From Myxococcota bacterium (GTDB lineage: Bacteria; Myxococcota; XYA12-FULL-58-9), in contig JAKLEG010000003.1 in NCBI GenBank assembly GCA_022703175.1, forward strand, positions 1 through 42,682: a stretch of 42,682 nt of DNA, written 5' to 3'. The notes beneath the pieces were generated by a model, which saw nothing but the letters and a program-made list of their open reading frames with translations, did no database searches and was not told the DNA's origin. The position numbers and the translations under genes are program-made. This document shows positions 756-36,898 of this stretch, one piece after another (within the stretch, counting starts at the first letter, position 1; the number at the start of each line of letters is the position of its first letter).

Positions 756-1784
756 CTACGCTTTGCCCCAGCGAATCACATTGGCCGCCCAGGCGTAGCC
801 AATGCCGGCGGCGATCATGCAAACCACCGTACCCGCCTTAATACGCCCGGCTTCAAGCCCCAAGTGCAAGGACAACACTTGGTCGATTTGGCCGATGTGA
901 CCGTAGTCGCGCAGATAGGTGGTTTGGTCTTCACGCAAACCCAGCTCCTGCAAGAGGATCTTGTGCATCGACGGCTTGAAGTGCAGCACCGCCAAATAGC
1001 CAATGTCTTTGCGGGTAAGCTTGGCCTTCTCAAGCGCCCGGTCGATGCAGTGATACCAGTTGGGCATCGAGACTTCGTTCAGCCGGTTTTTCATGTGCTC
1101 GCCGTCCATCAGGTCGAGCGATTGATAGGCGCGCGCCAAGTTGTCGGCGGTGATCGGCTCGGCAGTGCCACCAATGCGACAGCCCGCATCCCGCGCCATG
1201 CTGCCATCGGTGACCAAGTGGGAACCCAACAGCAAGTTAGCTTTGGCGTTGCGCTCCAAAATCATCGCACAACCGCCGGCGCCCAAGTTGTACATCATCG
1301 ACATCGCCGGATTGGTGTAGTCCACGAAGTCGCCGTTTCTGTAACCACCCACGATCATGACCGAGTTCACCTCGGGGTCGGCAATGATCATGTCTTTGGC
1401 CATCTTCATCGCGGCCACCTGCGAACAACAGCGCTGCTGCACGTCGATAGCCCAAGCGTTTTTGGCGCCAATCTGCTCCTGGATGTAGATGCCAGAGGTG
1501 GTTAGAGGGTACTCTTTCCATTCTTCGCCTATGCACAAAATTACGTCGATTTTGGCAGGATCATAGGCGAACCGTTTGAGGCAATCGAGACCCGCTTTGA
1601 CCCCCATCTCCTGGGTGCCGTCGCCGACACCTGGAATCGGTTTCTTGTCAAAACCGAGCTTGTCTTTGATGGCCGCCTCGGTCCACTTGCCAGCCGTCGC
1701 CAACGCCACCTGGGCCGCGGTCATTTCAGTTTTCGGAAAGTACAGGCCGTAGGCCACGATGCCAATGTTCTCAACTGCGTTCAC
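756..1784 (-). CDS. KAS III-like (FabH-family, thiolase fold) condensing enzyme or acyltransferase with atypical active-site region
   Basis: ORF 756..1952 trimmed to GTG at 1782-1784, preceded by GGAG with an 8-nt spacer. Product MNAVENIGIVAYGLYFP...DVQQRCCSQVAAMKMA...GYRNGDFVDY...DYGHIGQ...GYAWAANVIRW has FabH-like length (343 aa), an N-terminal IGIxGYGxYxP motif and a C-terminal GxGxxWGAxxxRW motif. The region around the presumed catalytic Cys reads QQRCCS, not the canonical AxC(A/S)G. Confidence 0.6.
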   Translation of the reverse strand: MNAVENIGIVAYGLYFPKTEMTAAQVALATAGKWTEAAIKDKLGFDKKPIPGVGDGTQEMGVKAGLDCLKRFAYDPAKIDVILCIGEEWKEYPLTTSGIYIQEQIGAKNAWAIDVQQRCCSQVAAMKMAKDMIIADPEVNSVMIVGGYRNGDFVDYTNPAMSMMYNLGAGGCAMILERNAKANLLLGSHLVTDGSMARDAGCRIGGTAEPITADNLARAYQSLDLMDGEHMKNRLNEVSMPNWYHCIDRALEKAKLTRKDIGYLAVLHFKPSMHKILLQELGLREDQTTYLRDYGHIGQIDQVLSLHLGLEAGRIKAGTVVCMIAAGIGYAWAANVIRWGKA

Positions 1785-1969
1785 GTGGGTCACTCCTTGG
1801 GGGGCGAAAAGAAACCCCGAAAGCTCGCGTACTCTACCGCGAATTACCCGAAAATACACAACAAATAACCATTTGTGCAGATGCAAAGAAAAGCTCCCGA
1901 ACGGGCGTTTTGGGGTTGTCAGAAGGGGGGAAGCGGGAGTAGTTGGCTGCACATAAAAAGGAGTCCCCC

Positions 1970-2962
1970 ATGAGCATTCATGCCCAACTGGTCGCCACTG
2001 GCCGCTACGTGCCGACGCAACTCGTGTCCAACGACGATATGCGCAAGCGCTTCGACGCGCGGGTCCCTGAGTTCGTCAACAAGATGGAAAAGTCGAGCGG
2101 TATCATGCAGCGCTTCCATGCGCCCGCCGAATTTGCCACCTCTGATCTCGCATTGCGCGCTGCACAAAATGCCCTCGAAAAAGCGTCCATGCGCCCCGAA
2201 GATTTGGACTTGATCGTGCTGGGGACCGACTCCCCCGACTACATCACCCCGGCCACCTCGGTGGTCCTGCAGTACAAATTGGGCGCCAAGAATGCCGGCA
2301 CGTTCGACGTCGGTTGCGCCTGCGCCTCGTTCCCCACTGGCCTCGCGGCTGCCTCGGGCATCATGAGCACCAACCCCGCGATCAAAAAGGTGTTGGTGGT
2401 GGGCGTTTACATGATGCAACGCTTGGCCGACCCCAACGATCCGGCCACCTTCTTCTACGGCGATGGCGCGGGTGCGGCCATCCTGGTGGCAGGTGACAAG
2501 CCCGGCTTCGTCGGAGCCGCCATGCAAGCCGACGGCACTTACTACAAGGCCTGGGGCATCTATTCGAGCGGCACGGCCGAGCCGCCCAACGCCGACGCGC
2601 TGGCCAAAGGCCGGACCTTCGTGAAAATGGTCGACCGCTACCCGCCCGAAATCAACAACGAAGGCTGGCCGCGCGTGGTGCGCAAGCTCGCCGCTGGGCA
2701 CAACTTTGCGGTGGCCGACATCGACTTCTTGATCTTCACCCAAGTGCGCAAGCCCACCATCGAGCTCGTGATGCAAACCTTGGAGCTGCCGATGGAACGC
2801 ACCCATATGATCATGGACAAGTGGGGCTACACCGGCTCCGCTTGCATCCCGATGGCCTTGGACGACGCGTTGGAGCAAAAGCTCATCAAGCCCGGCAATC
2901 TCGTGGTGCTGGTGGGCTCCGGTGTCGGCTACAACCAGGCCGCCGCCGCCATCCGAATCTAA
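1970..2962 (+). CDS. 3-oxoacyl-ACP synthase III (FabH) family protein
   Basis: ATG at 1970 preceded by AAAAGGAG with a 6-nt spacer. Product MSIHAQLVATGRYVPTQLVSNDDM...FDVGCACASFPTGL...FFYGDGAGAAIL...WGYTGSACIPMAL...GSGVGYNQAAAAIRI. Nucleophile Cys is in the classic GCACASF context. The positions that in E. coli FabH hold HQAN and GNTSAAS read TQVR and GYTGSAC, so the His/Asn of the triad appear substituted. Confidence 0.65.
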   Translation: MSIHAQLVATGRYVPTQLVSNDDMRKRFDARVPEFVNKMEKSSGIMQRFHAPAEFATSDLALRAAQNALEKASMRPEDLDLIVLGTDSPDYITPATSVVLQYKLGAKNAGTFDVGCACASFPTGLAAASGIMSTNPAIKKVLVVGVYMMQRLADPNDPATFFYGDGAGAAILVAGDKPGFVGAAMQADGTYYKAWGIYSSGTAEPPNADALAKGRTFVKMVDRYPPEINNEGWPRVVRKLAAGHNFAVADIDFLIFTQVRKPTIELVMQTLELPMERTHMIMDKWGYTGSACIPMALDDALEQKLIKPGNLVVLVGSGVGYNQAAAAIRI

Positions 2963-8393: not shown

Positions 8394-10193
8394 TTACTCC
8401 TTTTCCATGTTGACGAACGGGCTTGTGCACTGCGGATCCCGCGTCGGATAGGCCGGGTTGGGAGCGCCAGTAGGCAAGAACTCGGCCTGGAAGTCGATAA
8501 AGCCATCGCCATCGTTATCCACGCCGTCATTGCACTGCGCAGGTTTACTCTCGTCGCGGCGGCGCATACCGTCAATCGCGCTGGGCTCACCCGTCGTACA
8601 GGCACGATCGGGGAGCATGTCTCCCGCATCGGTGAAGACGCCGTTCTTGTTGAGGTCGATACCGGCCCAATCGGCGGTACCATCGCCGTCGTTATCAACA
8701 CCGTCGGCGCATTGCGGCTTCACGCTTTCGTCGTAACCCGCGGCCGACAAGCAACCTGGATCTGGCGGCATTTCGCCGGGCTGGTCGAACAGGCCGTCGA
8801 AGTTCAGATCGATGCCGGCGTAGTCAGCGCGACCGTCGCCATCGTTATCGGCGCCATCGTTGCATACCGGATCCAGTCGCTCCCACACATAACCTGCGCC
8901 ACACGCGGGATCGGCGGCGGACACACCCGTCACACCACTGTCAATCTTGCCGTCGCCATCGTTATCGACACCATCAGCGCAGTCGCCAGTGCTCGTGCCC
9001 TCGCTGCCTTCGGTGTCATCGGTGTAGCTCGAACAGCCCGGATCCAACGGATAGTCGATGAAACCATCGCCGTCGTTATCGAGGTTGTCGGCACAAGCGC
9101 TGTTGCTGTTTTCGCTACCTTCGAAATAGAGGCAATCCGGATCCTCCGGGTAGTCGATCAGACCGTCATTGTCGTTGTCGAGGCCATCGGCGCAGGTGGA
9201 CGATTCGTTGCCGTCTTCGGATGAAGAGCAACCCAAGTCGCCGGGGAAGTCGACCGTGCCGTCTTGATCGTTGTCCAGGCCATCGCTGCAGGCTGGTTGC
9301 GACTCACTGCTGTCCCACACGCTGGCGCAACCGAGGTCGTCGGGATAATCAATGCGGCCATCGCCGTCGTTGTCACGCCCGTCCGAGCAGGCGGGGTTCG
9401 CTTCATCGTCGTCGAAACGGCTCACACAGCCCGGATCGGCTGGGTAGTCGGCCACGCCATCGAAGTCGTTGTCGACGCCATCATTACAGGCATAGGCCCA
9501 CTCGCGGTCTTGCAGCGCTGACGAGCAGTCGGTGTCTTCCGGGAAGTCCACTTTGCCGTCGCCATCGTTGTCGATCTTGTCCCAACATTGCGGGTTGTTC
9601 TCGGTGTTGTCGCGGCGTGAGCTGCAACCGACATCGGCTGGGTAGTCCACCGCGCCATCGCCGTCGTTGTCCCGACCATCGCTGCAGGCGGGGTCGTTGG
9701 ACTCGCTTGGGTTCGAGCGCACCCAGTTGCCAGCGTTGTCCTGACACGCCGGATCTTGGGCGTCGGCCAAGCCATCACCATCGTTGTCCTTACCATCGGA
9801 GCACTCGGGGTTGGCCTCATCGTTGTCGAGCGTGCCCGGCGAATAATTGCCGTTTTGATCTTGGCAACCCGGGTCGGCGGCATCCGTTAGGCCATCACCA
9901 TCGTTATCTTTGTGGTCAGCACACGCTGGGTCATCGCCTTCTTTGACGCCTTGGTAATTCACCTGGCAGGCAGGATTGGTGGGCGCAAGCCCCGCCGAGG
10001 CTTGGCCGCAGTTACCATACATGGCGTAGTAACGATCGTTCCACGAGGCACACGCCGGGTCGTTGGCATCCAATAAGCCATCGCCATCGTTGTCGATACC
10101 GTCTGTGCACTCGTCGCGTAAGCCGTCACAGGCTGCGAGGGCGGTGATGCCGAGAGACAAAAATCCAATAAAAATGAGCCTTTTCATCATCAT
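8394..10193 (-). CDS. Secreted lipoprotein made of 14 tandem Cys-framed DNDGDG calcium-binding repeats (thrombospondin-type-3-like / MopE-like motif)
   Basis: MMMKRLIFIGFLSLGITALAAC (lipobox LAAC), then 14 copies of C-x-DG-x-DNDGDG-x-x-D-[YF]-P-x-D-x-G-C. Examples: CSDGRDNDGDGAVDYPADVGC, CADGVDNDGDGKID, CNDGVDNDGDGFIDF. 12-nt gap to the upstream gene, 5-nt gap to the downstream gene. Confidence 0.7.
   Translation of the reverse strand: MMMKRLIFIGFLSLGITALAACDGLRDECTDGIDNDGDGLLDANDPACASWNDRYYAMYGNCGQASAGLAPTNPACQVNYQGVKEGDDPACADHKDNDGDGLTDAADPGCQDQNGNYSPGTLDNDEANPECSDGKDNDGDGLADAQDPACQDNAGNWVRSNPSESNDPACSDGRDNDGDGAVDYPADVGCSSRRDNTENNPQCWDKIDNDGDGKVDFPEDTDCSSALQDREWAYACNDGVDNDFDGVADYPADPGCVSRFDDDEANPACSDGRDNDGDGRIDYPDDLGCASVWDSSESQPACSDGLDNDQDGTVDFPGDLGCSSSEDGNESSTCADGLDNDNDGLIDYPEDPDCLYFEGSENSNSACADNLDNDGDGFIDYPLDPGCSSYTDDTEGSEGTSTGDCADGVDNDGDGKIDSGVTGVSAADPACGAGYVWERLDPVCNDGADNDGDGRADYAGIDLNFDGLFDQPGEMPPDPGCLSAAGYDESVKPQCADGVDNDGDGTADWAGIDLNKNGVFTDAGDMLPDRACTTGEPSAIDGMRRRDESKPAQCNDGVDNDGDGFIDFQAEFLPTGAPNPAYPTRDPQCTSPFVNMEKE
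8516..10106 (-). repeat. Coding tandem-repeat array: 14 copies of the DNDGDG Ca-binding module, each about 35-45 codons
   Basis: Counted DND(G/F/Q/N)DG occurrences in the 599-aa translation: 14, each flanked by Cys. Confidence 0.65.
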
Positions 10194-10834: not shown

Positions 10835-12028
10835 TCAATCAAGTTCACCACAGTCGATGGCCGTGACCTTCTCGACTTGGCAACAACTCGGGCGGGCGGC
10901 TTTGCCGTCCTTCTTCTCTTGCTCCAGAAGAATTTCTTCCATCGCGCAGGGATACTCGGGGAAGGCTTTGGGCTTCTTCACGCCGACAATCACCTTGAGC
11001 GTACGGCCTGAGCCCGTGGGGGAGTCCTCCCAGCCGCCAGGAATCGCGATCTTGCGCACGACGTGGCCCTTGAACTCCTTGGTGTACAACTGCCGCACCA
11101 GCTTCTTGAGCGGCGCCGGCCCCGCAAGCTCCGGAAAATGCACCGCCGCCAACTCGGCGTTCTGGCTGTCGGTGCAGATCTTTTCGAAGTAGGCGAGCTT
11201 GAAGCGGCCCACCGTAGCGAGCTTGATGTTGTATTCAAGCGCATCTTCGGCCGTCTCGCGCAGACTCTGAAAGGCGGCGCGACATTGCGGCAAATCAACG
11301 TCGCTGAACACGGTGGCTTCAGCGGTGGGTGCCGCCTTGGCAAACGCCCGACGCAAAGCACGAATCGCCGCAGCCCCGCGCTGCAACGTCTCAACTCGAT
11401 CCATCGCCTGTTCCATCGGAATGCGCCACGGCTCGACGGACGCCTTCAACGCGTCGTCGGTGGTCATCTTCTCGTACAATGACATCAAGGGCGCCGAGTC
11501 ATCGAAATCATCCAAGTAGATGCGCTCGGCCGCGCGCGTCGCCTGGCCGTAGAAATCCTTCTCGGCGGTGGTGGCCTTGGCTGGCAGCGCTGGAACCTCG
11601 ATCCGCAACGACGCCAAGGTCTCTTTGGGAGGCTCCAACTTAACCGGCTCCGTCTTGGGCTTGGGCTCAGGCTCCGGTTTGGTGACCCTGGTCGGCTCCG
11701 TCTTGGGTTCGGCCACAGACTCAACCTTGGGCTCAGGTTTCGGTTCGGGCTTGGGCTCGGCCTTGACCACTGGCGCAGGCTTGGTGGAAGGCGTTCCAGC
11801 CGGACGCGACGTTGAGGTCGCGGCTTGCTTCGCGTCAGCCTGCTGCCAAACCAAGGTCACGGGCGGAAAGCCAGCGGCCTGACCGGGCGCAGGCGGCGGC
11901 GCCGGCGCGGCAACATTCGAGGGCAGTTGGATGATGGAGCGCAAGTCACCTTGTTGGGTAGCGCACGCCCAGAGTGCCCCCCCAAGACCGACGCTCAACG
12001 CAAATGTTTGGAGTCCCCGCCTAGCCAC
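10835..12028 (-). CDS. Lipoprotein with long Pro/Glu/Lys-rich (EPKPEPKPEPK) spacer and a C-terminal domain I do not recognise
   Basis: Best start is GTG at 12026-12028, giving MARRGLQTFALSVGLGGALWAC (lipobox LWAC). The ORF track extends to ATG 12082, which adds 18 non-signal-like residues. A spacer of about 55 aa of PEPK/TEP repeats is followed by a roughly 250-aa Cys-containing domain. Confidence 0.5.
   Translation of the reverse strand: MARRGLQTFALSVGLGGALWACATQQGDLRSIIQLPSNVAAPAPPPAPGQAAGFPPVTLVWQQADAKQAATSTSRPAGTPSTKPAPVVKAEPKPEPKPEPKVESVAEPKTEPTRVTKPEPEPKPKTEPVKLEPPKETLASLRIEVPALPAKATTAEKDFYGQATRAAERIYLDDFDDSAPLMSLYEKMTTDDALKASVEPWRIPMEQAMDRVETLQRGAAAIRALRRAFAKAAPTAEATVFSDVDLPQCRAAFQSLRETAEDALEYNIKLATVGRFKLAYFEKICTDSQNAELAAVHFPELAGPAPLKKLVRQLYTKEFKGHVVRKIAIPGGWEDSPTGSGRTLKVIVGVKKPKAFPEYPCAMEEILLEQEKKDGKAARPSCCQVEKVTAIDCGELD
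11578..11746 (-). repeat. Low-complexity coding repeat (EPKPEPKPEPK..., visible as short tandem nucleotide repeats)
   Basis: Read from the translation VVKAEPKPEPKPEPKVESVAEPKTEPTRVTKPEPEPKPKTEPVKLEPPKE. Confidence 0.6.
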
Positions 12029-12154
12029 GTCCGGCAATCTGCTACATCTATGGACCGCTGACAAGGCTTGCCCCCACAACAACTGCGTTACATGCCACGA
12101 CGATCATGACACCGACGGAAGGTCAGCTTGGACACTCCATGCCAAACACGATTG

Positions 12155-12382
12155 CTACTTCTCGCCCGATTTGGCCGGCAACAGGCGCATCAACACGAGC
12201 GTGCTCACCCAGAACAACGACATGAAGACGAAGATCGCGAGCATTGACCAGGCGGAGATTTCGAGCGCGCGCCGGAGCACCACCCCGGTGTCCTGGCCCG
12301 TAGGCAACGCCGACTGCGCTTGGGCCGGAACTGCTGCCAGAACCACGCCAAATGTAAGCCACAGTTTCATCAGAGTTGACAT
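12155..12382 (-). CDS. OadG-family small membrane subunit (gamma/delta-type anchor of Na+-translocating decarboxylases)
   Basis: ATG at 12380-12382 with GGAG 8 nt upstream. The track's longer 12155..12568 form would overlap the beta-subunit gene. 75 aa: signal-like N-terminus (MSTLMKLWLTFGVVLAAVPAQAQS), then a C-terminal TM helix (ISAWSMLAIFVFMSLFWVSTLVLMRLL), as in OadG-family proteins. 23 nt downstream of the beta-subunit gene. Confidence 0.45.
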   Translation of the reverse strand: MSTLMKLWLTFGVVLAAVPAQAQSALPTGQDTGVVLRRALEISAWSMLAIFVFMSLFWVSTLVLMRLLPAKSGEK

Positions 12383-12405
12383 CACGTTGACTCCCGACGT
12401 GCGCG

Positions 12406-13524
12406 CTACGACACCAAAGCCAAAATCAAGCCGCCCGCCACCACCGAGGCGATCTGCCCCCCGACGTTGGCACTCACCGCGTGCATCAGCAGGTGGTTCT
12501 GCTTGTCTTCTTCGAGCCCAAGCTTGTAAACCACCCGCGCCGCCATCGGGAACGCCGAGATGCCGCATGCCCCAATCATTGGGTTGATTTTGTGTTTTAG
12601 GAACAAATTCAGGAGCTTAGCAAACAAGACGCCGCCCACCGTATCAAAAATAAAGGCCACAAGCCCCATGCCTATAATGAGCAGGGTCGAAGACGTCAGG
12701 AAACGCTCGGCCACCATCGTCGAGCCAATGGTGATACCCAAAAGCAATGTCACGATGTTGGCCAACTCGTTTTGCGCCCCCTTGGACAAGCGCTCGACCA
12801 CGCCGGCCTCGCGCAGCAAATTGCCAAACATCAACATGCCGATGAGCGCCGCGGCCGACGGCACAAACAGGCTGGTGACGAGGGTGACCACCAACGGGAA
12901 GGCGATGCGCGTCGCCCGAGATACCGGTTGATACTTGTGGTCCATCCGAATGCGGCGTTCGTGTTTCGTGGTGAGCAACTTGATGACCGGTCGCTGAATG
13001 ATGGGCACAAGAGCCATGTACGAGTAGGCCGCAACCGAAATCGCTCCCAGCAACTCCGGAGCAAAACGTGTGGAGACTACAATGGAGGTCGGCCCGTCGG
13101 CGGCGCCGATGATGCCAATCGATGCGGCTTGTTTGAGTGAGAAACCCGCCAACGCCGCAAAGCACATCGTCGCAAAAATGCCGAACTGCGCGGCGGCCCC
13201 AAACAACAACATCTTGGGGTTTTGCAACAGCGGCGCAAAATCGATCATCGCACCGATGGCCACAAAAATGAGCAACGGAAACAGCTCGGTGATAATGCCG
13301 GCGCGGAACAGAATCGACAAAACCCCGTGCCCCGAGGCCTGATCGATCGCGGCCGAAAACGGGATGTTGACCAAAATGGCGCCAAAGCCAATCGGCAACA
13401 ACAGCGTCGGCTCATACTCCTTGGCGATCGCCAAGTAGATAAGAATGAGGCCCACAAGCACCATCACGCCGTGCTGCCAGGTGAAACCAGAGATGCCGAC
13501 AAACAGTTCGGAGAGCGAGGCCAC
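12406..13524 (-). CDS. Na+-translocating decarboxylase beta subunit (OadB/MmdB/GcdB family integral membrane Na+ pump)
   Basis: GTG start with AAGGAG 7 nt upstream. 372 aa, polytopic. N-terminus MASLSELFVGISGF...LIYLAIAKEYEPTLLLPIGFGAILVNIP carries the family-defining EP(L/T)LLLPIGFG motif. Length and hydropathy fit OadB/MmdB. Confidence 0.75.
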   Translation of the reverse strand: MASLSELFVGISGFTWQHGVMVLVGLILIYLAIAKEYEPTLLLPIGFGAILVNIPFSAAIDQASGHGVLSILFRAGIITELFPLLIFVAIGAMIDFAPLLQNPKMLLFGAAAQFGIFATMCFAALAGFSLKQAASIGIIGAADGPTSIVVSTRFAPELLGAISVAAYSYMALVPIIQRPVIKLLTTKHERRIRMDHKYQPVSRATRIAFPLVVTLVTSLFVPSAAALIGMLMFGNLLREAGVVERLSKGAQNELANIVTLLLGITIGSTMVAERFLTSSTLLIIGMGLVAFIFDTVGGVLFAKLLNLFLKHKINPMIGACGISAFPMAARVVYKLGLEEDKQNHLLMHAVSANVGGQIASVVAGGLILALVS

Positions 13525-13635
13525 GACGGGGCTCCTTGATAAAACCAGGTCGAGCCGTTAGGCTCGCGCGGACTTTACCGGCAGGCCGTGCAAGCTGCAA
13601 GCACACCCCCCAAACCTGCAGGCGTAAAGTCATAC

Positions 13636-13652
13636 CGACATCGTCGACATCG
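13636..13652. promoter_or_regulatory. Tandem direct repeat CGACATCG-T-CGACATCG (contains a SalI-like GTCGAC core) in the divergent promoter region, about 27 nt upstream of the carboxyltransferase start
   Basis: Seen directly in the 154-bp intergenic region between the beta-subunit gene (minus) and the alpha-subunit gene (plus). Candidate operator for coordinated control of both operons. Confidence 0.25.
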
Positions 13653-13678
13653 GTCGCGATGCGTGAAGGAGTTCCAGC

Positions 13679-15241
13679 ATGCCTGAGGCCAAGGCGGATG
13701 CCCCCAAAACCGCCCTCGACGAATTGCGGCGCCGCAAGAAGGCCGCTCGCTTAGGCGGTGGTGAAGCGCGACTACAAAAGCATCGCGCCCAGGGCAAGCT
13801 CACCGCGCGCGAACGGGTCGACTTGCTGCTCGACCGCGATAGCTTCCAAGAGCAACATCTGTTTGCTCGGCATCGCTGCACCTTCTTCGATATGGCCGAC
13901 AAGGAGTTGGCAGCCGACGGTGTCATCACGGGTACCGGCACCATCGATGGGCGAGTGGTCCAGGTGGCCAGCCAGGATTTCACGGTGGCGGGCGGCGCGG
14001 CGGGCGAGACCCACTGCAACAAAATCGTCGAAATGATGAAAGCCTCGATGAAGACTGGGAATCCGTTTGTCTTCATCAACGACTCAGGGGGCGCACGTGT
14101 CCAAGAGGGCGTCGATTCATTGTCGGGCTACGGTCGGGTGTTTCATGCCAACGTGATGCTGTCGGGCGTGGTGCCGCAGATCGCGGTGATTTGTGGGCCG
14201 TGCGCCGGCGGCGCCGCCTACAGTCCGGCGCTGACTGACTTCATCATTCAAACCAAACAAGCGCTGATGTTCATCACCGGGCCGCAGGTCATCAAAGAGG
14301 TCACGGGCGAAGAGATCAGCGCCGAGGCGTTGGGCGGGCCCGACGCACATATGCAAAAGAGCGGAGTCGTGCACTTTGTCGCCGACGACGACAGCGATGC
14401 GATGCGTATCTGCAAACGGCTGTTGAGCTTTTTGCCCGCCAACAACCGCGAAGATCCGCCGCACTTTCCGGCCGAGGACGCGATTGCGTACGACGACAGC
14501 CTGAATACCCTGATCCCTGACAACCCCCGCAAGCCGTACGACATGCTCACCGTGATTCACAGAGTCGTGGATCGCGGCGACTTTATGGAGGTGCAAGAGG
14601 GCTTCGCAAAGAACATCATCGTAGGCTTTGGCCGAGTGCTCGGGCGCACGGTGGGTGTGATTGCCAACCAGCCCAACGTCTCGGCGGGCGTTTTGGACAT
14701 CGACGCCTCTGACAAAGCGGCGCGCTTCATTCGCTTCTGCAACGCCTTCAACGTACCGCTGCTGAACTTTGTAGACGTGCCTGGCTTTTTGCCCGGCATC
14801 AAACAGGAATATGGCGGCATCATTCGCCACGGCGCCAAAATGCTCTTCGCCTACTCGGCCGCGACCGTGCCAAAGGTCACTGTGGTGGTACGCAAAGCCT
14901 ATGGGGGCGCCTACTTAGCGATGTGCAGCAAAGACCTAGGCGCCGATCGCGTGGTGGCCTGGCCGTCGGCGGAAATTGCGGTGATGGGAGCCGAAGGCGC
15001 GGTGAGTGTGGTGTTCCGCAAGGAAATAGAACACGCGGAAAACCGCGCGGAAAAACGTCAGGCGATGATCGACTTGTACCGGGAGACCTTCTGTTCGCCG
15101 TACGTCGCGGCCAGCCGGCTGCTCGTAGATGATGTGATTGAACCGGGAGAGACCCGCCAATACGTCGCGTTGGCTCTAGAAGCCTTGGTCACCAAGCGCG
15201 AGCTTAGGCCGCCGAAGAAACATGGCCTGATTCCACTCTAA
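13679..15241 (+). CDS. Carboxyltransferase (12S-type) alpha subunit of a biotin-dependent acyl-CoA decarboxylase. Methylmalonyl-CoA decarboxylase MmdA-like; the propionyl-CoA carboxylase beta chain family is the alternative
   Basis: AAGGAG 7 nt upstream of ATG. 520 aa with both carboxyltransferase halves: ...VVQVASQDFTVAGGAAGETHCNKI...FINDSGGARVQEG...ICGPCAGGAAYSPALTDF..., then GRTVGVIANQP...VVRKAYGGAYLAMCSK...AWPSAEIAVMGAEGAV. Placed divergently from the OadB-like pump subunit. Confidence 0.8.
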   Translation: MPEAKADAPKTALDELRRRKKAARLGGGEARLQKHRAQGKLTARERVDLLLDRDSFQEQHLFARHRCTFFDMADKELAADGVITGTGTIDGRVVQVASQDFTVAGGAAGETHCNKIVEMMKASMKTGNPFVFINDSGGARVQEGVDSLSGYGRVFHANVMLSGVVPQIAVICGPCAGGAAYSPALTDFIIQTKQALMFITGPQVIKEVTGEEISAEALGGPDAHMQKSGVVHFVADDDSDAMRICKRLLSFLPANNREDPPHFPAEDAIAYDDSLNTLIPDNPRKPYDMLTVIHRVVDRGDFMEVQEGFAKNIIVGFGRVLGRTVGVIANQPNVSAGVLDIDASDKAARFIRFCNAFNVPLLNFVDVPGFLPGIKQEYGGIIRHGAKMLFAYSAATVPKVTVVVRKAYGGAYLAMCSKDLGADRVVAWPSAEIAVMGAEGAVSVVFRKEIEHAENRAEKRQAMIDLYRETFCSPYVAASRLLVDDVIEPGETRQYVALALEALVTKRELRPPKKHGLIPL

Positions 15242-15253
15242 AGGAGGCGACCA

Positions 15254-15478
15254 ATGCTGAGCTTTTTGAAGAAACTCGTCGCCGCACCGCCTGAGGCAGC
15301 CCCGGCAGAGTCGCCTGTGGAGCCCTTTTTACTGGTGCTGTTCACCGCCGCCATAGCCGCCGCGGTGCAGCGACCGGTGCGCATCCGCCACATCACGATT
15401 CGACAAGCCTCAGTGGAACACCACCCCTGGTCCGACGGGGGTCGACAATCACTGCACCACTCGCACGGTCGCAACTAA
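15254..15478 (+). CDS. Small subunit of the (de)carboxylase complex (epsilon-like / OadG-like; one hydrophobic helix)
   Basis: Strong AGGAGG 6 nt upstream of ATG 15254, 12 nt after the alpha-subunit stop. 74 aa: MLSFLKKLVAAPPEAAPAESPVEPFLLVLFTAAIAAAVQRPVRIRHITIRQ.... Position between the alpha and biotin-carrier genes mirrors mmdA-D/E-C layouts. Confidence 0.35.
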   Translation: MLSFLKKLVAAPPEAAPAESPVEPFLLVLFTAAIAAAVQRPVRIRHITIRQASVEHHPWSDGGRQSLHHSHGRN

Positions 15479-15495
15479 CGGAGTCGAAAGAGATC

Positions 15496-15897
15496 ATGAA
15501 GGTTAGAATCACGTATCAAGGCACCGCCTACGAGCTCGATGTTGAAATCCTGGAGGCCCACGACCAGCCACATGTCCCCGTGGCCGCAGCAAATGCGCCG
15601 CCGCCCGCAGTTCCAGCCCCGCAAACTGCCGCCAGCCTTGCGCCCACGCCCAAGGTAAGCAAACCAACGACGGGTGACACTTTGGGTCGCACCGTGAATT
15701 CGCCCATGGCGGGGGTGGTGTTGGCCATCAAGGTGAAACCTGGCGACCAAGTGGCTGAAGGCCAAGATGTGGTCACGCTTGAAGCGATGAAGATGGAGAC
15801 CTCCATCGTGTCGCCCTACAGCGGCACCGTGAAGGCGATTCTGGTGGAACCACGCCAAGGCGTGGGCTCCGACGAGCCTTTGATTCAGTTCGAGTAA
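15496..15897 (+). CDS. Biotin carboxyl carrier subunit (biotinyl domain; MmdC/GcdC/OadA-C-terminus type)
   Basis: 133 aa. Ala/Pro-rich linker, then GDQVAEGQDVVTLEAMKMETSIVSPYSGTVKAI with the biotinylation motif E-A-M-K-M. Confidence 0.8.
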   Translation: MKVRITYQGTAYELDVEILEAHDQPHVPVAAANAPPPAVPAPQTAASLAPTPKVSKPTTGDTLGRTVNSPMAGVVLAIKVKPGDQVAEGQDVVTLEAMKMETSIVSPYSGTVKAILVEPRQGVGSDEPLIQFE

Positions 15898-27294: not shown

Positions 27295-28374
27295 CTAGAT
27301 GCCGGAGTTATCGACGTAGATGTACATGTCGCTACGAGTATTGATGTTGGTGGTGGGTACCACGCGCAAAAAGTCGGCGAAACGATAACCCGCAAACACC
27401 GGGTCATCCTTGATCGCCTGTTCTAGTTTGTCCGACCTCAAGCGCAACTGCACTTCGATCCCCACCACGTCGTCGTTGGTAGCGATGGCCGCATCGGCGT
27501 TGAACGTGAGGGTCGACACGGTGCTATCGGCCACACCGTCGGCGTTGGTGTCCAGCAAGAAACGAAAGCGCAAGCCAATCACGTCACCTGCGGCGATGCT
27601 CAATGAAGCGTCAGCCGCCGTGGTGGCCCGCATGTCGATGTTGGAAGCCAATGGATAGCGTTTGCTGTTGTCCTCCCAGTACAAATAGGGGTGCGCGGTA
27701 TTGGTGCAGTCCACCCCAAAGCCGCTCAGTTGCGCTTTGTAAATGTTGGTCGCGCGCGCGCTCACCGTGGCCAAGGTGGACGTCGGCCCCAAATCCAACG
27801 CGGTCTGCGCCGCCGACCAGTTGGTGTCGCCTACCACAAACGACGTGGCATTCAACGCTCGGGTGGCGCTGAGCCGCCCCATGCCCAAACCACCGCTCAT
27901 GGCCGATTGATAGAAAAACATCCAGGCCCCGGCATAGATGATTTTGTCGTGACCGGCCCCGCCCGGTGACGGGTCTGCCGACGCCAGGTTCACCGTGAAC
28001 GGCGCGGTGGCCCCGGTGGTGGTGGCCAGGTTCCACTTGCGCACGAGGTCGCGACTAGCGACCTCCAACTTGGGCGTGTTCACGGTGCCACAGCTCTCGG
28101 CATTCGCCGCAAAGCTCTTGATGCCGTACATGCGCGGTAGCCCCAGGCCGGTCGCACCCAGCTTGTCTTCCAACAGGGTCATCGCGTTCCGGCCGCTGCG
28201 TTGGATATCGTTGCGGTCGAAGGCGTCGGAGTTGGTTTTGGCTTGAATGTAAAGGAACGAGAGCGCGCCACCCAAGACCTCCATCACCACCACCAGCGTG
28301 ACCATCATTTCGATAAGGGTCATGCCGCGCTCGTGGGCGCTGCTTCGCCCATCGCGTTTGGGCGCGTCGGTCAT
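27295..28374 (-). CDS. pilW: Type IV pilus minor pilin PilW-like (prepilin-type N-terminal cleavage/methylation domain)
   Basis: Leader MTDAPKRDGRSSAHERG followed by the class III signal G|MTLIEMMVTLVVVMEVLG (Glu at +5). 359 aa, the PilW size range. Start overlaps the pilV stop (ATGA). Confidence 0.65.
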   Translation of the reverse strand: MTDAPKRDGRSSAHERGMTLIEMMVTLVVVMEVLGGALSFLYIQAKTNSDAFDRNDIQRSGRNAMTLLEDKLGATGLGLPRMYGIKSFAANAESCGTVNTPKLEVASRDLVRKWNLATTTGATAPFTVNLASADPSPGGAGHDKIIYAGAWMFFYQSAMSGGLGMGRLSATRALNATSFVVGDTNWSAAQTALDLGPTSTLATVSARATNIYKAQLSGFGVDCTNTAHPYLYWEDNSKRYPLASNIDMRATTAADASLSIAAGDVIGLRFRFLLDTNADGVADSTVSTLTFNADAAIATNDDVVGIEVQLRLRSDKLEQAIKDDPVFAGYRFADFLRVVPTTNINTRSDMYIYVDNSGI

Positions 28375-28865
28375 TTGTATTTGCCTCCAAGCACCGAGAC
28401 TGCTCGCTCCATTCGACTACCGCCCGCAGCGTTGTCCATCCAGGTCACCTTGACGGTGATGGTTTTGAAGGTGTGCTCGTTATTCTCCACCACCGACCAG
28501 GTACGCCAAAAGTTACCGTCAGCATCACCCGCCGCACCCGTGGCGGTGTTGTGAGGGCCTAACAGGCCGCCGTTCGCACCCAGGTTGCGATTGCCCGGCT
28601 CCACGTGGTCGTCGGCCGGATCGGTGGCCGAATCAGGCGCCAAATCGGCATGGTCGTAGGGCAGCTGCATTAACATATCCAGGCGGTTACGTGCCAAAAG
28701 CGTTGCGGCGGTCACGTGGGTGGAGACGCCGGTGCCTTCGCTGCCGGAGATCATCAAGCGCAACAACCCCAAGGCGCCAATGGTGAACACGGCCATGGCG
28801 ATCATCGCCTCCATCAAGGTCATGCCGCGTTCGCGATATCGCAGGCTCGGTCGTGTCATCATCAT
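28371..28865 (-). CDS. pilV: Type IV pilus minor pilin PilV-like
   Basis: MMMTRPSLRYRERG|MTLMEAMIAMAVFTIGALGLLRL with the prepilin motif. 164 aa, PilV-like size. Lies between the GspH-like and PilW-like genes, as in fimU-pilV-pilW arrangements. Confidence 0.65.
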   Translation of the reverse strand: MMMTRPSLRYRERGMTLMEAMIAMAVFTIGALGLLRLMISGSEGTGVSTHVTAATLLARNRLDMLMQLPYDHADLAPDSATDPADDHVEPGNRNLGANGGLLGPHNTATGAAGDADGNFWRTWSVVENNEHTFKTITVKVTWMDNAAGGSRMERAVSVLGGKYK

Positions 28866-28866
28866 G

Positions 28867-29526
28867 TCACATCGCCCCGTCGAACATGCGCACGTTGCCG
28901 GTGGCCCCTACGTAGGCCACAATCTTCACAATCCCCTCACCGGAGGAGGTTGGGTCGTAGAGCATCACGGCGCCCCCCAGCGGCGGGTCGTTGCCATCTG
29001 AATCGAAAATGCGGCCATCCGCTTCGAACCACAACGTGCAAGTGGTGACTCCAGATGCGGGTGGCGCGCACCATCTATCGTGCTCTAGGTCGTTGTACGG
29101 TACCGGCAGCGACGCGGCGACACCGGCCGCTGGCCCGAACGCGACATAGGGCGGAATAGATTGGCCCGCGTCGTTCTCGCTCGTAGAGCTCGGATAACGT
29201 TCCACCAACTTGTCGGTGCTATCACAGGTACCGTTGCTGTCGCTGTCTTGCCGCACCACCCAGTTGCGCGCCGTGCGATCGATCACCAAGCAATGACGCG
29301 CCCCTGTGGCAGTTGCCTGCGCCTGGGCCGTCATCAAGGCGCTGAACAACTTGCGCGCCGTACCGTTCAACACGCTGCGATGATACATGCCGTTCAACTT
29401 CGGGCCGGCCAGCATCGACACAATGCCGATGAGAGCTACCACCAACATCAGCTCAATCAGCGTAAAGCCGCGCGCCCCAAGGCGCCGCCGCACGCTATTG
29501 GCAGGTATTTGCATGCAAACAGTCAT
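28867..29526 (-). CDS. GspH-domain minor pseudopilin (FimT/FimU-like)
   Basis: ATG 29526 with GAGGAG 5 nt upstream (track start 29628 is a spurious extension). MTVCMQIPANSVRRRLGARG|FTLIELMLVVALIGIVSMLAGP with the classic GFTLIE prepilin motif. 219 aa. Its 5' end overlaps the 3' end of pilY1 by about 30 nt. Confidence 0.65.
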   Translation of the reverse strand: MTVCMQIPANSVRRRLGARGFTLIELMLVVALIGIVSMLAGPKLNGMYHRSVLNGTARKLFSALMTAQAQATATGARHCLVIDRTARNWVVRQDSDSNGTCDSTDKLVERYPSSTSENDAGQSIPPYVAFGPAAGVAASLPVPYNDLEHDRWCAPPASGVTTCTLWFEADGRIFDSDGNDPPLGGAVMLYDPTSSGEGIVKIVAYVGATGNVRMFDGAM

Positions 29527-32500
29527 GGACGCTCCTCGATACTGGGAACCGCATGATCTCCTCAGCGCTGTCCAGTTGTAGGCCGCTGGCCGTGGTCGCT
29601 TGCACCCCGGAGTCGCTGCCACCCGCAAACAACGTCGGCGTCGCTACACCGTTGGCAACCCCCACCGACACCATGGGCGCGGTGGGCACACCTTCGCCTA
29701 AGTCCAGAATATCACTGGCATTTGAGACGTTATCGCCGTTCCAATCGTAAAACTTGCCGCTGATGTAGTGCCTGGCGTGCAAGCGCGCGACTCCTTTGAT
29801 CGTGGCGCTGCAAGAATCGCTGGTGCCACCACACGCCACTGTTGGCAAGAAAGTCGAGTACAACGCATAGCCTGCGAAAATATTGAACGGTGTCGCGGCT
29901 TTCTCACCTGCCGTTAGTCGAACGAACCAGCCGCGGCTTTGGTCGGTTGCCGCGTCGGGCACGTCCAAATCGGCCAGATCTGATTCTAGACATGGGCGTG
30001 AGCCGCTCATGCCTTGGCATGCGCCGACGTTCATTGCGTACAACCGCTGTTGGTCGGTGCACAGATAGCCGTTGATGGTTGCGTTGCGCGTGGAGCTCGG
30101 GATCAAGGTGTCTCGATCACCGGTGGCCAAGATGATGCGAACCTGGCCGCTCGGCAGTTGGGTGATGGTGGGGTTAAAAAAGAACGGCCGGCGCTGATAC
30201 TCGTTGGCATCCAAGACGCCATCGGCATCGCCGCCTACCGAGTCAGTCACGATCAACGTCGAGTTCGTCTTGAACATCACTTCAACGTTCATGGAATAGC
30301 GACCTGAGGTGGCCACAAGTGGCGCCGTTAAACTTGGAGAAATGAGCCAGATCTGCCCGCCATGGTCAGGTGCCACGATCTGCTGGATGTACGAATTGAC
30401 ATCGGCCGTCATGTAAAACACCGGCGTCGCCGGGAACGAGTAGTTCATCGTCGCCGTCGCCCCGGAGCCGCTCTTTTGCGCCATCCACACAATGTCACCA
30501 GTCCAGGCGTCCACCATGAACAGCGCCCGACCCTTGCTGTCGAGGTAGTCATAGCCCGCTGAAAGCATTGCAACGAAACGGTCATAACCACCGGGCGTCG
30601 CAGCATTGTTGTCGCTGTCCACCCAGAGAGGCCCGATCGACGCGGGTGCGGGCGAGACGTCCAACCAACTCTCCCCCATCAACGCGCTTACCGCATTGCC
30701 GGACAGGTCGGTTTGATTCGCCTGCGGGAACTGCCACAGCAACCTTGGTGCCGTGATGTCCGTAACATCCAATGCGACATAGGTGTGTCCGCCCTGGCGA
30801 TGCCCGTAGATCGCCACGGTCTTCCACTTGTTCTTGTTTGCGGCGACATCCATGTCGGCGGTGCCACCCATCCAGATGTCACGCACCTCCACCGAACCGT
30901 CCACCAAAAACTTATGGGTATTCAGACTACAGAGACCGCCGCCGGGATCGCATAGGGTCTTGAGCTTGGGCAACATCTCGGGGCTCACAAACGCCCAAAG
31001 CTCCTGGCCTTCGGCGCCGCCCCGCCCAGAGTCGTAGTACTCACCACGGCTGCTGTTCCAGGTCTCCAACAAGAACGCGTGCAACATGCCGTCGTTGGCG
31101 CCCACCAACATCACCTTGGGGCGGGTAGCGTTGTCGGCCATGAAGGCTTGATACGACTCGCTGTCGTAGCGAGTGCCGCCCAACAGCCCTTTGTCGTTAT
31201 TCGGGTCGGGAGCTACCACGACGTTGGGAATCGAATGGAAGATATCCCCCAGCTTCCACCAGCCATCCACCAAGTTGCCGGCGCCGTCGCGCATCGTGTT
31301 CAGGTTGCGATCCTCAGTGCTGTTGCCATCCCCATCGGCATCGCCGCTGTCGAGGCCACGGAAGAAGCTGACAATCTTGCTGGCATCGGCCACGACGCCA
31401 CCCACATCCAAGGCCGTGACAAACGCCGTGCCGTACGTGCCGTTGGTCAGGCTGGCGACAGTAAAGGGAATCACATCGTCGTTGGTAAACGTGTTCGACG
31501 CGCCACCATGCTCCACCGCGGTGTAAATGACGCGCGAAGGTGGCGTGGTAGAACCTTCGGCGCCGGTGCGATAGCACTGCGTGACGTTGGTATTGGCTTT
31601 GTCTTGGGTGATCGACCCCAGGGCATCGGCAGCGTCGCCAGCCAAGCACAGCGCCGCGTCCCACAACGGCGTGGACAATAAGTTGCCCTCATCGTCGAAC
31701 GAGATGTCATTGCCGTTGGCGTCTTGAATGCAAACCGTGGCGTCTGAATCGCTGCAGGTACAACCCGTGCCCAGGTTTTCGTCGCAGGCGATGTTGGCGA
31801 ACACATGCCCTTCCCACAGCGGGAAGTGAATCGTGGGCCTAAACATAGCGTTCTGCAGACTGGCGGCCGCCTTAAGCCTGGTCGTGGCAACCGAGGGCGA
31901 GGTAAAGCCACGCGCCCGCTTCACGATCTCGGTGACGATATTGGCCAATGCTTCACGCAGCTCATTGGAGTTCCGGGCCGGAATGCAGCGGCCACCGCCC
32001 GCGGTAGCGGTTTGCTCCAAAATGCCGGCGCACTTGCTCTGGTCGGTGCTGTCCAACAGGCCGTAGCTTACGGCGTAGGTGTTCACCAACTGGTCGTTGG
32101 CAATGTCGGTGCGGTGGTCGATGCGGGTGAGCGCTTTGGCCACGTCATCCAGCCAATAGCCGTTGTTGTTGAAGTAGCCGTCGCTGATGGTCGGGATTTT
32201 GCTCTTCACGAACGGCACCCCAGAGGCGGAGGAGGCATCGGTGTTCGGAAAGCCGTCGGTGATGATGACCACAAAGTTGTTGGCATCCCCGCAGGTGGAC
32301 ACCGTGGAGTAGTCACACATCGGCGTGTTGGCACCGGTGGATCCCGAATAGTACTTACCGACTGCGTCGAGCGCTTTGGCGAGCGGCGTGCTGTCGTTAA
32401 ACTCCAGCGTGTTTTCTAGGTAATTAATGAGCTGCGAATCGTTTTGTGGAAAGCACTCGGTAGACGGATCACCGTCAAAACAATCGGTGCCGGTGGCCTG

Positions 32501-35873: not shown

Positions 35874-36866
35874 TCAGCCCTCACCCTCATGAGGTCCTTT
35901 GTCGGCAGGCGACACTGAACGCCCAATGGAGCTTCGCATATCGGTGTCGGCCATCACGTTCTTCATGTTGTAATAGTCGAGCACGCCCAGCTTGCCACTG
36001 GCCAGCGCCCCGGCAATCGCCATGGGCACTTGTGCTTCGGCTTCCACCACGCGCGCACGCATCTCGTACACGCGCGCCTTCATTTCTTGTTCCGCAGCCA
36101 CGGCCAGTGCGCGGCGTGATTCGGCGTGCGCCTGCGCGATTTGTTTGTCGGCCTCGGCTTGCTCGGTTTGCAGCTTGGCGCCGATGTTGGCACCTACGTC
36201 CACGTCGGCAATGTCGATAGACAAAATTTCAAACGCCGAGCCGGCATCCAGGCCTTTGGCAAGCACAGTCTTGGAGATGCGATCGGGATTCTCAAGCACT
36301 TCTTTGTGCGATTCGGCCGAACCGATGGTGGAAACGACGCCCTCACCAACGCGCGCAATGATGGTCTCTTCGGTCGCGCCGCCCACCAAACGCTCCAGGT
36401 TGGTGCGCACTGTGATGCGAACCAGGGCCGACAACGAAATGCCGTTCTTTGCCATGGCCGTGATTTTGGGCGTGGTGATGACCTTTGGAAGCACGCTCAT
36501 CTGCACTGCTTCGAGAACGTTGCGGCCGGCCAGGTCGATGGCCGCGGCGCGCGCAAACGGCAACGGAATGTTGGCCTTGTCAGCCGAAATCAACGCTTGC
36601 ACCACAAGCCCGACGTTGCCGCGTGCCAAGTAGTGCGCTTCCAATTGGTCGGTGGTCACCTGCAGGCCAGCCTTCAACGCCGCAATCCGCCCGCCAACAA
36701 TCACTGACGGCGGCACTTTGCGTAGCCGCATTCCCACGAGCGAAAAGATTCCGACATGCGCGCCCGAGGTCAATGCCTGTACCCACAACCCCACCGGCAC
36801 GTAGTAGAGCACCGTGAAAAACGCGACCACGCACACCAGAACGATCGCCACAACCAAGATATCCAT
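35874..36866 (-). CDS. floA: Flotillin-like protein FloA (YqfA/UPF0365 family SPFH protein)
   Basis: ATG 36866 with AGGTG 5 nt upstream (track start 36869 is GTG one codon earlier). [53 protein letters not shown]... closely follows the FloA consensus (N-terminal TM, then IGLWIsAlaaGV.vgi..LvGMRLRrV.P). About 330 aa. Confidence 0.8.
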
Positions 36867-36898
36867 CACCGCACCTCTGCGCTAAATATTGCGCGTTT

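Follow-up and report, generated by a model that had tools for sequence, protein, structure and literature searches.

The 42,682-nt stretch of DNA analysed here (hereafter the window; positions 1 to 42,682 of contig JAKLEG010000003.1 from a Myxococcota bacterium) carries, between positions 12155 and 15897, five genes which probably encode a sodium-translocating biotin-dependent decarboxylase. The genes form two divergent units. On the minus strand lie the gene of a 372-amino-acid (aa) beta subunit with the motif EPTLLLPIGFG (12406-13524) and, 20 nt past its stop codon, a 75-aa small membrane open reading frame (ORF) counted from its ATG (12155-12382). On the plus strand lie the gene of a 520-aa carboxyltransferase, the alpha subunit (13679-15241; PF01039), a 74-aa ORF (15254-15478), and the gene of a 133-aa biotin carboxyl carrier protein (BCCP) with the motif EAMKM (15496-15897), the 74-aa ORF standing between the other two. 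The beta and alpha genes are separated by a divergent intergenic spacer of 154 bp (13525-13678). All five ORFs were re-read, and their coordinates, lengths and motifs, like the length of the spacer, are as given by an earlier reading of the DNA without database searches (the sequence-only reading). The base composition of the region is unremarkable.

The same beta gene and small ORF also occur on a second contig, the metagenome contig L086, where they adjoin a divergent partial ORF that we take as the putative N-terminus of alpha. Here and below, L-numbers are the labels of compared contig loci, and P0266 is that of a library protein.

The five proteins

Beta is, by its profile scores, a strong member of the OadB/MmdB family. 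It matches PF03977 (OAD_beta) at E = 1.9e-153 and TIGR01109 with 462 bits against a cut-off of 190.6, and it is 55% identical to Salmonella OadB (PDB 6IVA/6IWW) across 355 aligned positions. Aligned to 6IVA, the window protein lacks OadB residues 60-111, a segment of about 52 residues. It is classed with the short, MmdB/GcdB-like form, and the missing segment fits what we take to be the build of such betas. The residues Glu40, Asp203, Arg304, Asn311, Ser382 and Asn412 are essential in Salmonella OadB, with Asp203 and Ser382 making up the first Na+ site and Asn412 the second, and Tyr229, Asn373, Gly377 and Ser419 matter for its structure (PMC7274780). The window beta has the same residue at each of these ten positions in the alignment to 6IVA, and its Na+ sites are numbered Asp143/Ser323 and Asn353. 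The protein looks functional and is a predicted carboxybiotin decarboxylase and Na+ pump.

The 75-aa protein encoded behind beta has a signal-like N-terminus (MKLWLTFGVVLAAVPAQAQS), one transmembrane helix (ISAWSMLAIFVFMSLFWVSTLVLMRLL; Kyte-Doolittle maximum of 2.37 at residue 47) and a basic C-terminus. Neither of the two small ORFs (75 aa and 74 aa) matched a Pfam or NCBIfam model at E<=0.01. The 75-aa protein has a weak match to the OadG model PRK03814 (E = 0.086) and does not by itself reach the threshold of NCBIfam NF040909, “OadG-related small transporter subunit”, which counterparts from anaerobes reach or approach. An alignment of it with the 63-68-aa ORFs that lie behind beta in the closest relatives has 11 invariant columns. 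When the 75-aa protein was combined with its three nearest counterparts and compared by hhalign with 16 anaerobe versions, all of them 37-56-aa ORFs downstream of short betas, the two profiles matched with 96.5% probability (E = 9e-10). An ORF of 37-80 aa with one helix lies a few nucleotides behind nearly every short beta examined, that is, those of the closest relatives (L001-L005, L171 and L172; 73-77% identity) and those of 80 loci from Firmicutes, Bacteroidota, Cloacimonadota, Synergistota and others among the matches listed. By this profile kinship the 75-aa ORF is assigned to the OadG-related small subunits and is predicted to supply the OadG-like helix.

Alpha matches PF01039 (Carboxyl_trans) at E = 3.9e-194, and among solved structures it comes closest to P. 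shermanii 12S (1on3, 681 bits), 1vrg from T. maritima and chains of PccB, all at E<=1e-160. No GcdA chain appeared at E<=1e-30 in this PDB comparison, and malonate-decarboxylase and AccA/AccD models match only weakly. GcdA, OadA and malonate-decarboxylase identities were ruled out by these profile and PDB scores. The protein is placed in the 12S/MmdA/PccB group of propionyl/methylmalonyl-CoA carboxyltransferases; it cannot be told from 12S by sequence, and no typing finer than this is possible. Homologues are named “12S subunit” by JGI and “acyl-CoA carboxylase subunit beta” by NCBI. At the position of Asp422 in PccB of S. coelicolor, which is reportedly a specificity residue, alpha has a leucine (GGAYLAM), as does 12S (GGSYLAM), and this leucine aligns with that of 3ib9, presumably the D422L mutant.

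The 74-aa ORF is preceded by AGGAGG ahead of its ATG and is in the same frame as alpha, following the TAA of alpha by four codons. Since the frame is shared and the alpha stop lies so near, no upstream helix can be encoded, and a missed N-terminal membrane helix was ruled out on these grounds. In canonical operons (L088, L089, L090, L002 and L004), Pfam-positive OadG proteins are encoded between alpha and BCCP and all possess an N-terminal membrane helix; it is their C-terminal halves to which the 74-aa protein can be aligned. Residues A32, A33, A36, W59, G63, R64, S70 and H71 are invariant in this alignment, and the motif LLxVLTAAxxAA...V.IRRIT...W..GR...SH is common to the 74-aa protein and the OadG tails. 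Another 29 tail-only ORFs from metagenomes also align with it. Among 30 tail-only proteins, 15 weakly matched PF04277 (OAD_gamma) and none matched ACC_epsilon, with which no kinship of the tail family was seen. We assign the 74-aa protein, from these alignments, to the OadG/MmdD/GcdD family as a helix-less C-terminal tail, the part which binds alpha in that family. A HMMER search with it in a library of 1.84 billion proteins gave six matches, one of them a 74-aa protein 97% identical. The 927-aa library protein P0266 contains a tandem array of five separate stretches, each with a match to this OadG-tail motif (E = 1.2e-06).

GcdD and OadG consist of a helix, an Ala/Pro linker and a C-terminal region linking to alpha (PMC7145394). 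Because helix and tail are carried by one chain in those proteins, the two halves of the tether appear to lie on two separate small proteins here; a single chain with both, like the delta subunit of Mmd, was not found at the locus. MmdE of V. parvula presumably resembles the delta tail as well, though a literature search on MmdD and MmdE gave nothing but unrelated acronyms.

The BCCP matches PF00364 (Biotin_lipoyl) at E = 1.9e-18. It starts with an anchor-like hairpin (MKVRITYQGTAYELDVEILE), followed by an Ala/Pro-rich linker and the biotinyl domain with EAMKM. PRK06549 and MmDecMmdC (NF047903; residues 2-130) match over the full length of the BCCP under the cut-off, and the same N-terminal motif recurs in BCCPs encoded by the canonical Mmd-type operons L088-L090 and L002.

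The family membership of all five proteins supports the proposal of the sequence-only reading that this is the gene set of a biotin-dependent, OadB-type sodium-pump decarboxylase. Its identification of an OadB/MmdB-type Na+-pump beta agrees with two profile matches well over the cut-off and with the retained equivalents of the Na+-binding Asp203 and Ser382. The MmdA-type alpha it proposed is in keeping with the 12S/MmdA/PccB placement and the distance from GcdA, OadA and Mad proteins. The OadG-like anchor it saw on the minus strand is supported by the profile-profile match, and the biotin carrier is indeed a free-standing protein. A small middle subunit had been noted correctly as well; what had been missed is that it is a helix-less OadG/MmdD tail, a form occurring mostly in transcarboxylase operons.

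Gene order among relatives

The divergent, split layout had been called unusual, and the survey of related loci contradicts this. At 78 of the 85 loci with a short beta and a small ORF among the matches listed, the pump unit stands alone: over distances of up to 10 kb, tblastn found neither an MmdA-type alpha nor a 5S/OadA-type carboxyltransferase nor a BCCP. When the neighbouring ORFs of short betas were clustered, the small ORF was the sole recurrent partner. The baseline contig scan with beta yielded mostly Firmicutes and Cloacimonadota at 58-69% identity, and the closest relatives were not among the matches listed. Of those relatives, L001, L171 and L172 have beta and the small ORF alone, L002 has them approximately 7 kb from an alpha-delta-BCCP cluster, and L004 has them convergent to a mutase-epimerase-alpha-delta-BCCP operon. 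If anything, the window is more clustered than is usual for the short-beta type.

Some genomes carry two beta paralogues, with the operon and short classes only about 50% identical to each other. The metagenome-assembled genome (MAG) GCA_027487775.1 contains both a stand-alone short beta (L001, 8001-9350) and, within a complete operon (L089, 10001-14280), a long beta of 544 aa. In L070 (4899-7681), a canonical MmdA-OadG-BCCP-beta operon is followed directly by a second, short beta with its small ORF, and two paralogues also occur in L046 and L079. The operon betas of Poriferisphaera sp. WC338 (L088, 12798-14444) and of GCA_027487775.1 (L089, 12646-14280) measure 544-548 aa. About 170 residues are inserted in them behind the first helix pair, where OadB has its insertion of about 52 residues and the window beta has none.

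For alpha, 80 related loci with 63-71% identity were found in metagenome contigs. Alpha, a small tail ORF and BCCP occur together in almost all of those that extend far enough, and beta is present in only one (L166). In 47 of the 80, a carboxyltransferase of about 500 aa, OadA-like and without a biotin domain (5S type), is encoded directly upstream of alpha, and genes for epimerase, mutase, MeaB and CoA-transferase often follow downstream of such 5S-linked clusters. The same type of alpha also occurs in the mutase-epimerase-alpha-OadG-BCCP-beta operons of canonical relatives (Poriferisphaera L088, L089 and L070). A neighbour-joining tree, which has no support values, places the window alpha apart from the main 5S-linked clade and with L089, L090, L004 and L088, nearest to L089; the alphas of L089, L088 and L004 come from operons with beta and OadG.

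The transcarboxylase-type operons from soil and peat metagenomes (L092, 9538-9747, with L093, L098, L100, L101, L120, L153-L160 and about 40 more) almost always contain a conserved, helix-less OadG/MmdD-tail homologue of 58-120 aa between the genes for 12S and 1.3S. To our knowledge, transcarboxylase has been described with three subunit types only, and the helix-less tail may for this reason be an unrecognised fourth component of that enzyme.

An ATP-dependent acyl-CoA carboxylase was also weighed as the source of alpha and BCCP, with its AccC/PccA-type partner elsewhere in the genome, the 74-aa protein as an epsilon-like subunit and beta unrelated. Small helper subunits encoded behind the carboxyltransferase gene are known in actinobacterial carboxylases, and both the strong match of alpha to PccB structures and the NCBI name of close homologues would suit such an enzyme. 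The leucine in place of aspartate at the PccB-422 position does not, nor does a tail family which weakly matches OAD_gamma and never ACC_epsilon, nor a BCCP whose N-terminal anchor is of the decarboxylase/transcarboxylase type. In addition, no match to the biotin carboxylase (accC-type) family was found among window ORFs of at least 400 aa, in line with the sequence-only reading, which had seen no such gene nearby, and no biotin carboxylase is among the recurrent neighbours of the 80 alpha loci (5S, BCCP, mutase, epimerase, MeaB and CoA-transferase). We regard a carboxylase as the least probable of the explanations considered.

A proposed pump in two modules and its alternatives

The best explanation of the five genes, which look intact, is a two-module methylmalonyl-CoA decarboxylase (Mmd-type, EC 7.2.4.3) that depends on biotin and translocates Na+, a reading to which we give a probability of roughly 0.6. 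That the alpha-tail-BCCP genes lie 154 bp from those of beta and its small subunit was counted for a joint function. The rightward genes would provide a cytoplasmic module of alpha, the 74-aa tail protein and BCCP, in which alpha would transfer the carboxyl group of (S)-methylmalonyl-CoA to the biotin on BCCP and release propionyl-CoA. The leftward genes would provide a membrane module of the short beta and the 75-aa one-helix OadG-related subunit. BCCP could swing on its Ala/Pro linker between alpha and beta, and beta would decarboxylate the carboxybiotin and use the energy for Na+ export via the Asp143/Ser323 and Asn353 sites. The helix of the 75-aa protein may pack on beta as gamma does in 6IVA, and the 74-aa tail may bind alpha. 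That the modules act jointly is inferred, and so are the substrate, the reaction's direction and the contacts of the small proteins.

Several observations weigh against this reading. The score of alpha against TIGR01117 (mmdA) is 764.4 bits, under the cut-off of 998.8, and alpha is equally similar (63-73%) to the alphas of transcarboxylase operons; the tree which places it near beta-linked operons lacks support values. The form of the tail also follows the partner gene, as helix-less tails (58-120 aa, some with a coiled-coil-like N-terminus) occur with 5S at 37 loci and helix-bearing ones with 5S at three, and the delta subunit bears a helix in all six beta-linked operons examined (L088, L089, L166, L070, L002 and L004). 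A helix-less tail module combined with a pump module, as in the window, was found at no other surveyed locus. Adjacency of alpha and the pump could be incidental, because the short beta with its small subunit usually stands alone. The window contains no mutase, epimerase or CoA-transferase gene that would define a pathway, and the searches for partner genes cover these 42.7 kb of the genome.

Because the 74-aa tail is of the helix-less kind known from transcarboxylase operons, a soluble methylmalonyl-CoA:pyruvate transcarboxylase stays alive as an explanation. Alpha, the 74-aa protein and BCCP would then be its 12S subunit, a small protein and its 1.3S subunit, the 5S subunit would be encoded elsewhere in the genome, and the beta unit would be an independent generic pump, perhaps sharing the BCCP. 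A 12S-type alpha and a 1.3S-type carrier are both present, 12S is the best solved match of alpha and the name JGI gives its homologues, and short beta units are normally unlinked from partners. The order of 5S, alpha, tail and BCCP in more than half of the alpha relatives (47 of 80) and the 37:3 association of helix-less tails with 5S point the same way. No 5S/OadA gene was found in the window, however, either by tblastn with a 5S representative or by Pfam scans of the large ORFs, and the slot directly upstream of alpha, which 5S occupies in the 5S-linked operons, holds the divergent beta. The position of alpha outside the main 5S-linked clade, in a tree without support values, likewise argues against a transcarboxylase, as does the occurrence of helix-less tails without an upstream 5S at eleven other loci. 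On balance, we judge a transcarboxylase to be unlikely, yet the strongest competitor of the decarboxylase.

The same five proteins might instead work mainly in reverse, with the Na+ gradient of an aerobic or marine Na+-cycling organism driving an ATP-independent carboxylation of propionyl-CoA to methylmalonyl-CoA for propionate assimilation or for the supply of polyketide extender units. That a Na+ gradient can reverse Oad and Mmd is stated in PMC7274780 and in PMC3578206, both with reference to Dimroth and Hilpert 1984. A reverse mode has been proposed for the aerobe Nitrospina gracilis. Cytochrome oxidase genes lie beside close beta relatives (L002 and L004), and the window has no ATP-dependent carboxylase. 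Carboxylation would require a large Na+ gradient, however, and the window offers nothing on lifestyle, Na+ cycling or pathway context; the mutase/epimerase/CoA-transferase operons of related alphas fit either direction. We consider a mainly reversed enzyme improbable, more so than a transcarboxylase and slightly less so than a carboxylase.

If the decarboxylase is accepted, its two small proteins lead to a more speculative idea. Since tail form tracks the partner gene, a transcarboxylase-style soluble module seems to be paired with a pump module here. Were the 74-aa protein to bind alpha and the 75-aa protein to bind beta, alpha would therefore not be covalently tethered, and the swinging BCCP would be the sole link. 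The locus may then represent an untethered modular pump, in which a transcarboxylase-style soluble module serves a free-standing beta/mini-OadG unit and the two jobs of delta/gamma fall to unconnected polypeptides; stand-alone units of this kind would be universal carboxybiotin sinks for any carboxyltransferase/BCCP pair. This idea is tentative, and we hold it more doubtful than not. The divided tether and the mixed modules are nevertheless, as predicted from the proteins, the real curiosity of the locus, and they rest on one lineage.

The locus adds a Myxococcota-like, poorly sampled lineage to the candidate carriers of Na+-pumping biotin decarboxylases; no papers on myxobacterial Mmd turned up in a literature search. 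A textbook impression is corrected as well, since betas of the short type are as a rule encoded in a two-gene pump unit of their own. Attempts to solve the complete complex of a member of the decarboxylase-pump family had failed (PMC7145394), and a split tether, if functional, bears on how the soluble carboxyltransferase is held on the pump and whether a tether is needed at all. For annotation, the partner gene (beta, 5S or accC) and not alpha alone decides whether an alpha-tail-BCCP cluster is that of a decarboxylase, a transcarboxylase or a carboxylase.

Spacer, surroundings and known systems

The divergent layout had been taken to imply coordinated bidirectional regulation, for which the spacer gives no support. 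It contains no match to a sigma-70-type promoter pair and none to an Rfam element or riboswitch at E<=1; a riboswitch or other known RNA was thereby ruled out. Because a sigma-70 consensus promoter is missing from the spacer, co-regulation of the two units remains a guess. What is presumably the 5' leader of beta has a GC-rich terminator-like hairpin (13551-13566, minus strand) with a T-rich run behind it, and just 5' of alpha a tandem direct repeat (two copies of CGACATCG; 13636-13652, plus strand) holds a GTCGAC palindrome. Each of these could be a regulatory site or chance.

Next to the small subunit, 72 nt downstream of it, a gene at 10835-12082 (minus strand) encodes a 397-415-aa repeat protein rich in Pro, Lys and Glu (EPKPEPKP...) without a Pfam match. 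It is also present in L086. As it is not kept next to beta in relatives, it is probably unrelated to the pump.

The remaining neighbours in the window are unrelated to propionate metabolism and include KAS-III-like, SPFH/flotillin-NfeD, NHL and RCC1 repeat proteins, an ECF sigma factor, and pseudopilins with a PilY1-like protein. No tRNA or Rfam element was matched in the window. Two divergent KAS III (FabH)-like genes (756-1952, minus strand; 1943-2962, plus strand) overlap by about 10 nt at their 5' ends as called. They may be connected with starter-unit or polyketide chemistry based on propionyl- or methylmalonyl-CoA, although 10 kb separate them from the genes of the decarboxylase. A predicted lipoprotein of 599 aa (8394-10193, minus strand) contains about 14 Cys-flanked DNDGDG repeats (C.DG.DNDGDG..D..DP.C) and has no Pfam match at E<=0.001; the repeats resemble what we take to be putative metal-binding repeats of myxobacterial proteins. 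Three pseudopilin genes with N-methyl motifs, one of them GspH-like, lie downstream of the gene of a 1578-aa PilY1 beta-propeller protein (27295-34231, minus strand), in what looks like a minor-pilin cluster of a type IV pilus or type II secretion system. A full-length gene for an NfeD membrane protease and, immediately behind it, one for a flotillin-like FloA (E = 2.2e-153) make up a classic NfeD-flotillin pair (35874-38425, minus strand). The best named homologues of this FloA are from Myxococcota MAGs (75-77% identity), with which the myxobacterium-like origin suggested by the sequence-only reading is weakly consistent and plausible.

A split layout of such pumps is already known, as it has been published for the glutaconyl-CoA decarboxylase (Gcd) of Acidaminococcus fermentans (PMC3035267) and for Mmd of Xylanibacter (Prevotella) ruminicola (PMC11575231). 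In the single-operon Mmd described in 1997, to the extent that PMC11575231 cites it, a 12S/PccB-like alpha, a short OadB-family beta (about 370 aa), a free BCCP and OadG-like small subunits occur without a biotin carboxylase, as they do in the window. All genes of that system form one operon and its delta subunit combines helix and tail in one polypeptide, whereas the window has two divergent units, with helix and tail on the 75-aa and 74-aa proteins, and an alpha that scores under the NCBIfam mmdA cut-off.

The X. ruminicola Mmd is encoded at two loci, one with oadG-mmdC-mmdB and the other with mmdA, a 50-aa hypothetical ORF and mmdC (PMC11575231). This split closely parallels the beta-side unit of the window and its series of alpha, 74-aa ORF and BCCP, the small proteins being paralleled by description. 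The X. ruminicola loci are far apart, each has a BCCP gene, and oadG precedes beta; in the window, the units are 154 bp apart, there is a single BCCP gene, and the small subunit comes after beta.

In A. fermentans, gcdA lies approximately 15 kb from gcdB, gcdC and gcdD, which form a “second operon” (PMC3035267). The Gcd of this species and of Clostridium symbiosum (PMC3035267, PMC7145394) is a Na+ pump of the same family with gcdA apart. It differs in that GcdA is a more distant carboxyltransferase (no match to alpha at E<=1e-30), the substrate is glutaconyl-CoA, and GcdD holds together the helix, Ala/Pro linker and tail which the window divides. In the beta-gamma complex of Salmonella Oad (6IVA/6IWW; PMC7274780), the one-helix partner gamma packs on OadB, to which the window beta is 55% identical. 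The carboxyltransferase OadA, however, is of another kind and has its biotin domain fused to it, and the gamma tail is on the same chain as the helix. Members of NF040909 resemble the 75-aa protein in being tiny one-helix proteins encoded directly behind a short OadB-type beta, but the window protein is longer and has an additional signal-like segment at its N-terminus.

Alpha itself is most similar to the 12S subunit of the Propionibacterium transcarboxylase (12S/5S/1.3S), and we liken the N-terminal anchor of the window BCCP to that of 1.3S, whose sequence we presume to be of this kind. The helix-less tail of the window is typical of the 47 5S-12S-tail-1.3S loci; unlike those loci and the transcarboxylase, the window has an adjacent pump and no 5S.

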